Shown one piece after another: positions 12,708 to 31,478 of a stretch of 32,000 bases of DNA. The position numbers and the translations under genes are program-made. Under the pieces are notes generated by a model. That model did not search any database. It was given only the letters and a program-made list of their open reading frames with translations, and was not told where the DNA came from. This stretch comes from Methanocaldococcus jannaschii DSM 2661 (lineage in GTDB: Archaea; AGJL01; Methanococci; Methanococcales; Methanocaldococcaceae): the NCBI RefSeq assembly GCF_000091665.1, contig NC_000909.1, positions 1,434,118 through 1,466,117 on the forward strand, read 5' to 3'. The first letter of the stretch is position 1, and every line of letters starts with the position of its first letter.

Positions 12708-13391
12708 ATGATTTCTGTCATCTTAGTTAATCCAAAATACAGTGGAAATGTTGGTAGTATAGCAAGGGTTATGATGAATTTTGGATTTGAAGAGCTTAGA
12801 ATAGTTGGAGATAAAAGCATAATAAATAATGAAGCCTATATGATGGCAGTCCATGCAAGAGAGATTTTAGACAATGCCAAATTCTACAACACCTTTGATG
12901 AAGCTATAGGGGATTTAGATTTTGTTATTGCCACTTCAGGAGCAAGAGGAGGAGATAGAAATTTAAAGAGAGTTCCAATAACACCAAAAGAGTTGGCAGA
13001 TAAAATCTTAGAGGTTAAGGGAAACATTGGGATTGTCTTTGGTAGGGAAGATGATGGATTGAGAAATGAAGAGATAGATAAATGTGATTTGTTAGTTTCA
13101 ATACCAACATCTGAAAAGTATCCAATTATGAACCTATCTCATGCTGTTGCAGTTATTTTATATGAGATTTATACAAAAAAAGTTAGAAATAAATTTTTAG
13201 ATATAAATATGAGAGAGGCATCAAAAGAGGACAAAGAGCTATTGATAAGGAAATTTAATGAGTTTATTGACAAGAATGAAAAAATCCCAGAGCATAAAAA
13301 AGAACTCTGCAAAATAATCTTTAAGAGATTGGTTAATAGGGCTTTTATAAGTGGAAAGGAGGCATGGACGTTAATGAGTGCATTTAAATAA
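12708..13391 (+). CDS. trmJ: SpoU (TrmH/TrmJ) family RNA 2'-O-methyltransferase
   Basis: SPOUT motifs NVGSIARVMMNFG, IVFGREDDGL and IPT...YPIMNLSHAVAVILYE. An alternative GTG start at 12699 overlaps the upstream stop. Confidence 0.85.
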   Translation: MISVILVNPKYSGNVGSIARVMMNFGFEELRIVGDKSIINNEAYMMAVHAREILDNAKFYNTFDEAIGDLDFVIATSGARGGDRNLKRVPITPKELADKILEVKGNIGIVFGREDDGLRNEEIDKCDLLVSIPTSEKYPIMNLSHAVAVILYEIYTKKVRNKFLDINMREASKEDKELLIRKFNEFIDKNEKIPEHKKELCKIIFKRLVNRAFISGKEAWTLMSAFK

Positions 13392-21104: not shown

Positions 21105-22529
21105 ATGGGAATCTGTAGATTAACAAAAAAAGACATTGAAGGAATTTTACATATTTTAGGGGGGATTATACAAATTATTGGAATATTTACATTAGTTCCA
21201 TGTATAGTGTCAGTTTATTACAATGAAAACACCTTTTTAAATTTTTTAATTCCAGGTTTATTTTTTTCTATTTTTGGATTTGTTTTAAAGAGAGCTACTA
21301 AACCAAAAAATTTAAAACTACATCATACCATGGTTGCCTCTGCATTGGCTTGGCTTATAGCTTCATTTATAGGGGCCATTCCTTTATATTTATCTATAGA
21401 TTATTTTTCTTATGTTGATGCAGTTTATGAAAGCATGTCTGCCTGGACAACAACTGGAATGACTCTTATTCCTAATGTTGAGGTTTTACCAAAATCTATT
21501 TTATTTTGGAGGAGTTTTCAGCAGTGGATTGGTGGAGTTGGAATATTGGTTTTATCAGCTCTTGTCTTAGCAAGGTCTGGAACTGTTGCTTATCTTTTAT
21601 ATACATCTGAGGCGAGACAAGAGAGGATAATGCCAAGTGCTATAGGAACAATAAAAACTATTATCTGGATTTATATTTTATACACTATTTTAGGGGTTCT
21701 TTTGTTATATTTATCTGGATTAAGTTTTTGGGATGCTTTAAATTTAACCATGACTGGAATATCTACTGGAGGAATGAGTATAAGCAATTATAGCTTTCCA
21801 TACAACGATTTTGCAAAAATTGTTATGATTGGCATAATGATGGTTGGAGGAGTTATGTCATTTTCAATACATCACAAATTACTAACGGGCAAGTATTTTA
21901 ATGACATTCAAACAAAGTATGCATTAATTGTTACTGCCTTTATTTCAATTATCATCTCAATAAAGGATAAAGTTCCAATAATAGATTCTCTCTTTACAGT
22001 AGTTTCAGCAATGACATCAACTGGATTCACAACTATAAATGTAGGTAATCTCTCATCCTTATCCCTATTTTTGATAATTTTTTTAATGCTAATTGGTGGA
22101 GGGGCAGGGACAACAACTGGAGGGGTTAAGATAATTAGATTTTTAGTTATACTGAAGGCACTTTTATATGAAATAAAAGAAATTATTTATCCAAAATCAG
22201 CAGTGATTCATGAACATCTTGATGATATGGACTTAAATTATAGAATAATTAGGGAAGCATTTGTTGTATTCTTTTTATACTGTTTATCTTCGTTCTTAAC
22301 AGCTTTAATATTTATAGCTTTAGGTTATAACCCTTACGATTCAATATTTGATGCTGTTTCTTTTACCTCAAATATAGGCATATCTTTAGGGGTAGTTACT
22401 TTAAAAACTCCAGTAATTGGAAAAATAGCTGGAATTATAGCAATGTGGATTGGTAGATTGGAAATTATCCCAGTGCTTGTTTTATTTGCTACTTTGTATT
22501 TTAAAACTCTGAGACTTTTAAAAAAATAA
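21105..22529 (+). CDS. trkH: TrkH/KtrB-family potassium uptake membrane protein
   Basis: 474 aa, polytopic. Repeated pore-loop signatures: WTTTGMT, GISTGGMS, MTSTGFTT and GGGAGTTTGGVK. Confidence 0.9.
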   Translation: MGICRLTKKDIEGILHILGGIIQIIGIFTLVPCIVSVYYNENTFLNFLIPGLFFSIFGFVLKRATKPKNLKLHHTMVASALAWLIASFIGAIPLYLSIDYFSYVDAVYESMSAWTTTGMTLIPNVEVLPKSILFWRSFQQWIGGVGILVLSALVLARSGTVAYLLYTSEARQERIMPSAIGTIKTIIWIYILYTILGVLLLYLSGLSFWDALNLTMTGISTGGMSISNYSFPYNDFAKIVMIGIMMVGGVMSFSIHHKLLTGKYFNDIQTKYALIVTAFISIIISIKDKVPIIDSLFTVVSAMTSTGFTTINVGNLSSLSLFLIIFLMLIGGGAGTTTGGVKIIRFLVILKALLYEIKEIIYPKSAVIHEHLDDMDLNYRIIREAFVVFFLYCLSSFLTALIFIALGYNPYDSIFDAVSFTSNIGISLGVVTLKTPVIGKIAGIIAMWIGRLEIIPVLVLFATLYFKTLRLLKK

Positions 22530-22597
22530 ACTAAATGTTTAAGTCTAAATCTTCAAAAGATTTTTATTTTATATATGAATAGCTGACAAAACTGCTA

Positions 22598-23218
22598 ATC
22601 TCCATTCCGAAACGGTCTTATTTTAATAATAAATGACGTTGCAGTTGCATACAAGTTTTTAGTTAAATTATATTTCCATTCCGAAACGGTCTTATTTTAA
22701 TTATTTTAATTTTAATAAAATTTTTACAGATAAAAATGGAGGAGATAAGTTTCCATCCTCCAAGAGGTCTGATTTTAACTAAAGATGCACAAGGTTATCA
22801 ATTAGTAATAGTAAATGAAGATACTTCGTTTCCATCCTCCAAGAGGTCTGATTTTAACAAATGAATTTAGTTATGATTATCATAGCAGATTGTTTAACGT
22901 TTCCATCCTCCAAGAGGTCTGATTTTAACCGTTTAATGCTTATATTGCCGTGAAAGGTAAGAGCGGGCAGATTTCCATCCTCCAAGAGGTCTGATTTTAA
23001 CATTATTCATAATAACACCAGATGAAGCTGAAAAATTGATAAAACAGATTTCCATCCTCCAAGAGGTCTGATTTTAACAAAAATTTATATACTACCAATA
23101 CACTTATAATATACTTGTATTTCCATCCTCCAAGAGGTCTGATTTTAACACGAATTATTTAACAAAATATTTAGTAAAAGCATTTAAATTTCCATCCTCC
23201 AAGAGGTCTGATTTTAAC
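22598..23218 (-). CRISPR. CRISPR array, 9 repeats of two families; no cas genes in the window
   Basis: Two 30-bp repeats begin at 22598 (atctccat...) and 22672 (atttccat...) and share the remainder tccgaaacggtcttattttaat. Seven 31-bp repeats ([ag]tttccatcctccaagaggtctgattttaac) begin at 22749, 22828, 22899, 22971, 23048, 23119 and 23188. Spacers are 38-48 bp and all different. Minus-strand orientation is inferred from the ...GGATGGAAA[C/T] 3' end and the leader position. Confidence 0.93.
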
Positions 23219-23602
23219 AGGGCAATCATTCACAACATAATATATTTCATCACTCTTAATATTTAAGCTTTTCTATACCATATTTTTCTAAGGATAAATA
23301 ACCATCTTACAATATAAACCTTTTAGTATTTAAAATTTTATCTCTTTACTAAAACTAAGCATTTTTATCTCCTTAAATTCAAAAATTTAACTTATTAGTT
23401 AGAGAAATCTTATTTACTTACCTAATTAATCTCAATTTTTAAAAATCTAAATAATTTAATAAACTCAAATATTCTAAATAATCAAACCAGCAAACCCTTA
23501 GAAATTAAATAAAAAATTCTCAAATGAAGAAATAGATTTTATAAGCTAATTAAACATAGATTTAAATTTTTTCAACAAGACAAATATTATCTAAATATCC
23601 AA
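23219..23602 (-). promoter_or_regulatory. Putative CRISPR leader (AT-rich non-coding)
   Basis: About 384 bp without an ORF, abutting the homogeneous end of the array. The divergent repeats lie at the opposite end. This fits the long-repeat/short-repeat organisation described for M. jannaschii. Confidence 0.5.
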
Positions 23603-24784
23603 TCATTCAATTCTAACTGCATGAGCACATTTTTCAGCCAATTCCCTTGCCTTCTCTACAGAATCGGCATAAGCTAAAGCAACTCCCATTCTTCTACCAA
23701 CCTTTGCATTTGGCTTTCCAAACAATCTCAACTTAGTATTTGGAACTTTTAAAGCATCCTCTATATGATACTTTGGAGCATATTTATTTATCTCTGCCTT
23801 TATTACATGGCTTGCCCCTGGGTGAATAAGTTTTGTTGATACTGGCAAACCTAAAATAGCCCTAACATGAATTTCAAACTCACTCATTTCTTGAGTTATC
23901 ATTGTAACCATTCCTGTATCATGAGGTCTTGGTGAAACTTCACTAAATATAACCTCATCCCCTTTAACAAACAACTCAACACCAAAGATTCCATAACCAC
24001 CTAAAGCATCGGTAACCTTCTTAGCTATATCTTGAGCTTGTTCTTTTAATTCAGCAGACATATTATGAGGTTGCCAGCTTTCATGATAATCTCCATCTAT
24101 TTGGACATGACCTATTGGCTCACAAAACTTAGTTCCTTCAGCAGTTCTTGCGGTTAATAAGGTTATCTCATAATCAAAGTTTATAAATTCTTCAACAATA
24201 ACCCTATTTCCTATTCCTCTTGCTCCTTCTTTAGCTATCTTCCAAGCTTTCTCTATATCCTCTTCACTTCTAACTACACTCTGCCCCTTTCCAGATGAAG
24301 ACATAATTGGCTTAACTACACAAGGCAAGCCAAGTTTTTCTACGGCATCTCTCAACTCTTCTAAAGAATCTGCAAATTCATACTTAGCAGTTTTTAATCC
24401 TAATTTTTCAGCTGCCAATCTTCTTATTAACTCCCTATTCATAGTTATCTTTGTAGCTTCAGCTGTAGGAATAACAGTATAACCCATTTTTTCAGCATCT
24501 ATTAATGCATCTGTATTTATTGCTTCAATTTCAGGAACAATATAATCTGGCTCTTCCCTCTCAATAATTGCCATCAATGCATCGTAATCTTTCATATCAA
24601 TAACATAGCTCTTGTGAGCAACCTGCATAGCTGGGGCGTTTTGATACCTATCAACAGCTATACACTCAATTCCCAATCTCTGAGCTTCAATAACAACTTC
24701 TTTCCCTAACTCTCCACTTCCTAACAACAAAAATTTTATACTTCCTTTCAAAAGAGGTGTCCCAATTGCCATAAATTTCACCAA
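23603..24784 (-). CDS. purT: Formate-dependent phosphoribosylglycinamide formyltransferase (GAR transformylase 2, ATP-grasp)
   Basis: 393 aa. N-terminus [15 protein letters not shown]-grasp core [16 protein letters not shown] and EEFI.FD.E. An alternative start exists at Met5. Confidence 0.92.
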
Positions 24785-29521: not shown

Positions 29522-29654
29522 ATTTAATTCTAGTCAAAAAACCAATTGTGATGCTCATGAACGATAAAATAATATATTACATAGATAATGCAGTATCAAT
29601 AATAAAGCTAACTTTAATAACTTAATAACTTATTTGCTTATAGCTATTGGTATA

Positions 29655-30053
29655 ATGTTTCAGCCTCTGCAGTATCCTACTATTCCATGCATTATATTTA
29701 TGGTTATTGTTGGATTAGGTTTGTTGTTTGCTTTTCAATTCATATTGGGTTATGGTTTTGAAATGCATAGGCAAATAACAATAAAGGATAGAATAGCATT
29801 TCGTAACTATGTAGTTGGAAAAATATTTAATGTGTTAGTTGAACATAGCTATTATGGTCTATTACTAAGCACATTTAACTTATTTGTGTATAAAAAAGCC
29901 ATTACTATTAGATTATGCTTTATATTTGCCATTAGCATAGTTATATTTTGGATTTTAGGAGGTAAGCTAATTAAAAAAAGTTTGAAGTTATGTTTTAGCT
30001 GGTTTTACTTCTTTATTAACCCATCTATAAGTCATAAATGCAATAGCAAATAA
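29655..30053 (+). CDS. Hypothetical membrane protein
   Basis: Four hydrophobic segments. The start is uncertain (TTG at 29634 or ATG at 29655). No clear RBS. The 3' end overlaps a small minus-strand ORF. Confidence 0.4.
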   Translation: MFQPLQYPTIPCIIFMVIVGLGLLFAFQFILGYGFEMHRQITIKDRIAFRNYVVGKIFNVLVEHSYYGLLLSTFNLFVYKKAITIRLCFIFAISIVIFWILGGKLIKKSLKLCFSWFYFFINPSISHKCNSK

Positions 30054-30110
30054 TAAAAATAGATAAATTCCCATAGCTATATAAAATACTTCTGCATTTC
30101 CCAATTGCAT
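29988..30110 (-). CDS. Candidate small membrane protein (40 aa)
   Basis: Hand-translated from the minus strand: MQLGNAEVFYIAMGIYLFLLFAIAFMTYRWVNKEVKPAKT, one TM helix. ATG at 30110-30108 with agagg about 10 nt upstream. Below the ORF-track length cut-off. Confidence 0.3.
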   Translation of the reverse strand: MQLGNAEVFYIAMGIYLFLLFAIAFMTYRWVNKEVKPAKT

Positions 30111-30176
30111 AACTACCAGCCTCTAAACTCTTAAAGATGGTTAATATTTTTATTTAATACTTTTTATTTTTATTAG

Positions 30177-31478
<1,302 letters not shown>

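Follow-up and report, generated by a model that had tools for sequence, protein, structure and literature searches.

A CRISPR array of Methanocaldococcus jannaschii with two repeat families and with flanks that belong to two array-bearing loci in related genomes

How does one CRISPR array come to hold repeats of two kinds? On the minus strand of the 32,000-nucleotide stretch of Methanocaldococcus jannaschii DSM 2661 DNA that was analysed (the window), positions 22598-23218 hold an array of nine repeats, seven of which, adjoining the leader, are of one kind (T2), and two of which, at the trailer end, are of another (T1). A preliminary description of this DNA had seen in it two repeat lineages joined by recombination or by a switch of repeat type. 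We compared the array with the other arrays of the genome and of the genus, and weighed exchange between arrays against replacement of repeats in place, foreign seeding and decay.

Anatomy of the array and its spacers

The array and its surroundings comprise the following features (coordinates without prefix are those of the window):

21105-22529, plus strand: trkH-like gene, trailer-side flank
22598-22627, minus strand: terminal (oldest) repeat, T1, 30 nt, with one mismatch against the T1 consensus (GGAGAT)
22672-22701, minus strand: second T1 repeat, 30 nt, of the same sequence as the repeats of arrays C1:1049519 and C1:1575519
22702-22748, minus strand: junction spacer between the T2 and T1 blocks, 47 nt
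22749-23218, minus strand: T2 block, seven 31-nt repeats and six spacers
23219-23602, minus strand: leader, with a conserved core at 23219-23515
23603-24784, minus strand: purT-like ATP-grasp gene, leader-side flank

The seven T2 repeats (31 nt, core CCTCTTGGAGG) start on the plus strand at 22749, 22828, 22899, 22971, 23048, 23119 and 23188. Read in the sense of the crRNA, which is the minus strand, they are GTTAAAATCAGACCTCTTGGAGGATGGAAA[C/T] and are identical apart from this last base, which from the leader outward is T in four repeats and then C in three. The two T1 repeats (30 nt, core CCGTTTCGG) have the plus-strand core tccgaaacgg in common and read ATTAAAATAAGACCGTTTCGGAATGGA[A/G]AT in crRNA sense, one unit being ATTAAAATAAGACCGTTTCGGAATGGAAAT and the other carrying GGAGAT. 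The locus thus combines repeats of constant length (30-31 nt) with eight unique spacers of 38-48 nt, and it has a conserved A/T-rich leader on one side and variant repeats at the far end.

The sequence bore out the nine repeats of the preliminary description at their positions, and likewise the ordered series of first plus-strand bases, g,g,g,a,a,a,a, that it had noted across the seven T2 repeats. Its proposal of a leader on the right with serial copying from the leader end fits the ordered polymorphism of the last repeat base. It had also placed no cas genes close to the array, and none was found among the 14 larger reading frames between window positions 13378 and 31936. From the position of the leader we propose that the array is transcribed on the minus strand from the right-hand side, where a putative A/T-rich, TATA-like motif lies ~20-29 nt upstream of repeat 1.

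The spacer at the boundary between the two blocks is unusual. Two incomplete copies of the 5' end of the repeat (ATTAAAAT and TAAAATA) make up its repeat-proximal 15 nt, and TRF lists a tandem repeat at 22692-22711. Partial repeat ends are found at the type junction of the window array and at two other type junctions. The copies in the junction spacer may be the scar of a joint.

None of the eight spacers matched the phage and plasmid collections, in which the sole match was the similarity of the repeats to those of a plasmid array of strain FS406-22. Matches of the spacers elsewhere in their own genome reached at most 18 nt. Across the genome, spacer duplicates were confined to single arrays; no two arrays have a spacer in common. 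Runs of identical spacers were seen within arrays C1:236564-238184 and C1:378-2201 (seven copies in one, three in another), and in C1:378-2201 spacer 14 recurs as spacer 18; the sevenfold run has been noted before (PMC4869251). The first spacer of array 507264 (C1:507294-507341) starts with the repeat 5' end in reverse complement (TCTGATTTTAAC), suggesting capture from a CRISPR array, either the genome's own or a plasmid's.

Repeat families, hairpin cores and crRNA processing

The genome of M. jannaschii DSM 2661 (31% G+C) consists of contigs of 1,664,970, 58,407 and 16,550 bases, of which we take the two smaller ones to be the two extrachromosomal elements of the strain. A stringent repeat scan of the chromosome yielded ~20 CRISPR loci. 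The family counts given here are exact cores from that scan; a laxer one, which returned hundreds of false arrays, was discarded. The T1 core was found in 101 exact copies, the T2 core in 54 and CCGATTCGG, the core of a close T1 variant (T1'), in 23. Since each of these forms pure arrays, which reach up to 25 units, we regard T1, T1' and T2 as living repeat families. A fourth kind, T3 (core TCCCTCGGGGA), is restricted to the array beside the cas genes (C1:351600-352800), which also has a divergent leader; the remote arrays are all T1, T1' or T2 and have the common leader.

Ordinary decay at the trailer end would make the two outer repeats mutated copies of T2. Terminal CRISPR repeats are commonly degenerate, and the last repeat of the window array does have one private mismatch. 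However, T1 and T2 have near-identical flanks and differ in their cores by about five substitutions and one indel, so that decay would need all of these, and the same ones in both units. Moreover, the two units reproduce the consensus of the 101 T1 repeats in 30 of 30 and 29 of 30 positions. This match to the T1 family, seen when repeats were compared across the genome, refutes decay, to which we give practically no credence; the preliminary description was right to set it aside.

All repeat kinds have the same ends, of 13-14 nt and 7 nt. Position 1 (A/G) and position 9 (C/A) define three end haplotypes, and all nine combinations of haplotype and core kind are present. Because of these nine combinations, and because the leader tree does not match repeat kind (see below), we view the repeat family as reticulate rather than as a set of clean lineages.

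In all four kinds the core folds into a short stem and a loop of 3 nt, always at the same position: CCG-UUU-CGG in T1, CCG-AUU-CGG in T1', CCUC-UUG-GAGG in T2 and UCCC-UCG-GGGA in T3. T2 and T3 stems differ in two pairs, each altered on both sides. These paired changes were read directly, as MAFFT misregisters 3-bp against 4-bp stems. The self-complementarity that the preliminary description had ascribed to the T1 and T2 cores is present in both palindromes. It had also called the hairpin core completely swapped, and this holds for the inner stem and the loop; the two outer C-G pairs are common to T1 and T2. Compensatory changes in the stems of CRISPR repeats are known (Kunin, Sorek and Hugenholtz 2007, PMC1896005). 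As in the repeat clusters of that study, the stem-loop in M. jannaschii is kept through paired changes while the ends are constant. Unlike in those clusters, the stems have 3-4 bp and do not exceed shuffled sequence in stability (-2.7 to -4.6 kcal/mol at 37 C, z about 0), and several variants occur together in the genome and even in a single array. Any role of such weak stems probably depends on a bound protein.

The genome encodes one Cas1 and two Cas6 proteins (TIGR01877). A cluster at C1:339.9-351.3 kb carries genes for Cas1, Cas6, Cas3, Cas4, Csa3, Cas7/Csa2, Cas5a, Cas3', Cas3'' and Cas8a2 and is a type I-A module with adaptation genes. A Csm1/Cas10 gene lies at C1:1653.9-1656.2 kb, and the effector modules of M. 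jannaschii are of types I-A and III-A. The first Cas6 gene is at C1:339917-340681; the second is solitary and adjoins RuBisCO (C1:1177941-1178666). The two paralogues are 32% identical. The preliminary description had set one Cas6 that tolerates both stems against two processing enzymes, which is a fair question for this genome.

Repeats of systems whose Cas6 leaves an 8-nt tag have an ATTGAAA-type ending, to which the ATGGAAA of M. jannaschii is close. In all repeat kinds of M. jannaschii the last eight bases of the transcript are AUGGAAA and one variable base. Cas6 enzymes leave 8 nt of the repeat as the 5' tag of the crRNA, as was described for Cas6b of M. maripaludis (Richter et al. 2012, PMC3479195); that system is of type I-B, unlike the effector modules of M. 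jannaschii. To judge from the repeat ends, crRNAs from the T1 and T2 blocks would carry the same 5' tag, and the tag predicted for crRNAs from the T1 trailer units (spacers 7 and 8) is AUGGAAAN. As both the AUGGAAA end and the short stem with its 3-nt loop are kept, processing of both repeat kinds is expected.

Across all arrays, the last base is the most variable position of the repeat, with 28 changes in 151 adjacent pairs of repeats of the same kind; any other position changed at most three times in these pairs. The base is copied in runs, 123 of the 151 pairs being identical compared with 63 expected if neighbours were independent. This variability suggests that the border between repeat and spacer is defined in an error-prone manner during spacer integration. 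At C1:1049379-1049470, two leader-proximal repeats are without their first six bases and the leader continues directly into ATAAGACCGTTTCGG. The truncated repeat was duplicated once, and spacer integration seems to have worked on the shortened form.

Mixed arrays, re-paired flanks and synteny breakpoints

Repeats of more than one kind occur in 7 of the ~17 leader-bearing arrays of M. jannaschii. From leader to trailer these arrays read as follows, where off-consensus denotes a repeat that is one or two bases off the consensus core of its own type:

C1:48796: two T1, one T2, one off-consensus T2, one T1
C1:92299: two T2, one off-consensus T2, one T1
C1:507264: eleven T1, one off-consensus T1', one off-consensus T2
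C1:1034820: twelve T2, one T1, one T1'
C1:1049519: nine T1, one off-consensus T2, one off-consensus T1'
Window array: seven T2, two T1
C1:1570374: six T2, two T1'

Repeats of the minority kind, one to three in number, are in every case those at the trailer end. Mixing occurs in both directions: T2 is followed by T1 or T1' in C1:92299, C1:1034820, C1:1570374 and the window array, and T1 by T2-like repeats in C1:507264 and C1:1049519; T1, T2 and T1 succeed one another in C1:48796. Mixed arrays are also present in two congeners, Methanocaldococcus sp. FS406-22 (G006), where 15 T1' repeats are followed by two T2 repeats in the array designated Y below, and G001, where an array of six T1' repeats has a T2-like final repeat. 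Among 17 genomes of the genus, the exact T2 core was found in 5 and T1 or T1' in 8, with both in G000, G001, G006 and G012.

We searched 16 other genomes of the genus with a 5-kb query across the window array and assessed the adjacency of its flanks in the 10 congeners with assemblies of one to three contigs, the other six being too fragmented. The trkH-like and purT-like genes were adjacent in none of the 10, the distance between them being 100 kb or more. Both flanks adjoin arrays in G001 and G006, but not the same one: trkH is beside the trailer end of one (array X) and purT beside the leader of another (array Y). The match to the Y locus of these two congeners (86-87%) runs contiguously from purT across the entire leader and takes in the first one or two repeats. 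In G001 the leader of X matches the window leader at only 67%. Since the Y match spans the leader and the X leader matches so poorly, the point of exchange is not in the leader. The joint falls within window positions 22504-23119, between the end of trkH and the second repeat, an interval that includes the T1/T2 boundary. In G001 as in M. jannaschii, T1 repeats adjoin trkH, and their distance from its stop codon is similar in the two.

We consider it probable that the window array is the product of an exchange between two arrays, X and Y. The trkH flank and the two T1 repeats would be a remnant of X; Y would have supplied the T2 repeats together with the leader and the purT flank. The crossover would have occurred within the arrays, most probably at a repeat or directly beside one, by way of the common ends of 13-14 nt and 7 nt. 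Spacers would later have been added at the leader, each addition copying the leader-proximal repeat, and hence the growing part would be uniformly T2 while the T1 units persist as a trailer fossil. As no spacers are common between arrays and the trailer spacers have turned over (beside trkH, only the repeats align across M. jannaschii, G001 and G006), the crossover cannot be placed precisely; its exact point and the enzymology of the exchange are inferred. The flank exchange and the type switch may also have been separate events, Y possibly having been mixed already and the exchange having occurred in its terminal T1 repeats.

Comparison of whole chromosomes places the window array among many similar loci. 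Between M. jannaschii and G001 (1.6 of 1.6076 Mb) we identified 70 collinear blocks. Sixteen of the 23 M. jannaschii CRISPR loci lie wholly within gaps between blocks, and the window array, inside which synteny breaks at 22504-23119, brings the loci at breakpoints to 17 of 23. When intervals of the same sizes were placed at random in 5000 trials, the number at breakpoints averaged 2.4 and did not exceed 9, so the association of CRISPR loci with breakpoints in this comparison is above chance. Six arrays lie inside collinear blocks, which indicates that the chaining passes through arrays where gene order was kept.

The flanks of other arrays have been re-paired as well. In G001, array X has its leader flank in common with M. 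jannaschii array C1:378 and its trailer flank in common with the window array. In G001 array 1522078, the leader flank corresponds to that of a236564 and the trailer flank to that of a48796, and G001 arrays 432544 and 160575 carry the leader flanks of a48796 and a501491. When all array flanks were mapped onto G001, no leader flank mapped to a trailer end. The flanks of the window array, too, lie on two different arrays of the relative with their polarity kept. Re-pairing that respects polarity is the pattern expected from crossovers inside the repeat-spacer part. The preliminary description's reading of two lineages joined by recombination or a type switch thus gains support from the recurrence of mixing and from the differing origins of the two flanks.

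Several points speak against an exchange. The shared ends of 13-14 nt and 7 nt are short for classical homologous recombination, arrays have no spacers in common, repeat type has changed elsewhere with no exchange of flanks, and leaders do not track core type. A reciprocal product, in which the leader part of X would be joined to the trailer part of Y, was looked for and is absent. The leader flank of X now adjoins array C1:378, whose own trailer flank is not paired with any array in G001; the trailer flank of Y, for its part, adjoins a solo T1' repeat fused to a 46-nt piece of leader (C1:1371507-1371578). Because the simple reciprocal product is missing, the history of the window array must include several events.

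Solo or degenerate repeats, some with pieces of leader, were found at C1:1371507-1371578, 1180157-1180186, 108252-108550, 902812-903001 and 1335513-1335660. Apart from the one at 108 kb, all coincide with breaks of synteny to G001, and they resemble stumps left by array exchanges or deletions.

The leaders provide some of the evidence for the main rival of the exchange model. The core of the window leader (23219-23515, ~300 nt) is 82-96% identical to the leaders of 15 other arrays, and the two outliers, at the cas-adjacent locus and at C1:1220 kb, are 73% identical to it. Among 16 of these leaders, pairwise identity ranges from 83 to 100%. The leader tree shows no correspondence with repeat kind, and the leaders of arrays 507264 (T1) and 858344 (T2) are 100% identical over 300 nt. 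Furthermore, repeat kinds differ between syntenic, unrearranged arrays, as between C1:1267046 (ten T2 repeats) and array 287174 of G001 (20 T1-like repeats). At another syntenic site, C1:428572 has 15 T1' repeats and G001 a solo T2 repeat. These differences at syntenic sites and the identical leaders on different cores imply that repeat kind can be replaced with no exchange of flanks, for which short-tract conversion of leader-proximal repeats is a likely route.

Applied to the window array, such a switch in situ would mean that gene conversion, with another array or a plasmid-borne one as donor, replaced the leader-proximal repeat, with or without the leader, that later acquisitions copied the new T2 repeat, and that the change of flanks was an unrelated event. 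The reticulate combinations of haplotype and core, the confinement of the minority kind to one to three trailer units and the presence of a leader with a T2 array on a plasmid of FS406-22 would all agree with this. However, the flanks of the window array come from two array-bearing loci and synteny breaks within the array, and a single exchange explains both. No donor spacers are common with other arrays, although these may have been lost since. We therefore regard a switch in situ as possible but rather unlikely for this array.

The FS406-22 plasmid itself (NC_013888.1, 12,197 bases) carries a leader with nine T2 repeats, from which we conclude that leader-array units can travel on plasmids in the genus. 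The existence of such a mobile source also speaks for the exchange model. A foreign leader with T2 repeats from a plasmid of this kind could have integrated or recombined beside a short resident T1 remnant, and the solo or degenerate repeats scattered in the genome, also at breakpoints, could be taken as further signs of such seeding. Against it, the window leader continues without a break into chromosomal sequence on the purT side, which has orthologues in G001 and G006, no plasmid-derived sequence was found beside the window array, and the plasmid leader is only ~72% identical to the window leader. An origin by foreign seeding is thus very improbable.

A separate observation concerns a 677-bp insert at window positions 29522-30198, with a hydrophobic reading frame of 139 amino acids (29634-30053) that has no Pfam match. 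The insert is missing at the orthologous site of G001, where positions 327627 and 327628 are contiguous. Copies that are ~77% identical lie inside array X of G001 (1465813-1466381) and beside the array of the FS406-22 plasmid (302-870). Possibly the insert is a small mobile element that associates with CRISPR arrays.

Relation to known systems and implications

The repeat clusters of M. jannaschii were reportedly first described with the genome sequence by Bult et al. in 1996. The arrays studied here, as these clusters were later catalogued, are the same loci, with a long leader-like segment and more than one kind of short repeat. One M. jannaschii array is discussed in the CRISPRDetect paper (PMC4869251). 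In a literature search that left most subscription journals outside its range, we found nothing on mixed arrays, on a link to flank exchange or on breakpoint enrichment in Methanocaldococcus, and the papers covered yielded no small-RNA data for M. jannaschii.

In Thermotoga, large-scale chromosomal recombination has been attributed to CRISPR loci (DeBoy et al. 2006, Mongodin et al. 2005, in the passage of PMC5637354 that cites them), and a role of CRISPR in rearrangement was proposed by DeBoy et al. (2006, J Bacteriol 188:2364), as cited in PMC1896005. To the extent that these citing passages describe it, the situation is alike in that dispersed arrays of one family border rearranged segments between related hyperthermophiles. 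It differs in that the exchanging arrays of M. jannaschii have distinguishable cores, so that the joint is visible as the T2/T1 boundary, and in that M. jannaschii is an archaeon with ~20 arrays that have a ~300-nt leader in common. Since CRISPR-associated rearrangement has already been reported for Thermotoga, the novelty is modest. The window array is a clear, well-documented example and no surprise to specialists.

A bolder reading would make arrays the main substrate of rearrangement in Methanocaldococcus, with Cas1-Cas2, the machinery of spacer integration, joining two arrays exactly at repeat borders by transesterification or disintegration, in place of general homologous recombination. 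We think this improbable. If it were true, the partial repeat ends at type junctions, the truncated repeats at C1:1049379 and the hypervariable last base would be footprints of that chemistry.

Arrays with mixed repeats are usually dismissed as decay or as a nuisance of annotation. In M. jannaschii they act as dated scars of exchanges, and its ~20 arrays behave like a family of dispersed repeats by which the chromosome is reshuffled. It follows that the flanks of an array are unreliable for tracing its orthology, that the order of spacers in a mixed array is not always the record of one continuous history, and that repeat-based typing of one array can yield two answers. M. jannaschii, in which three or four variants of the hairpin are combined with a single 5' tag and two Cas6 paralogues, also offers a natural test set, which could be used to ask how much of the stem sequence is read by Cas6 and by the integrase.
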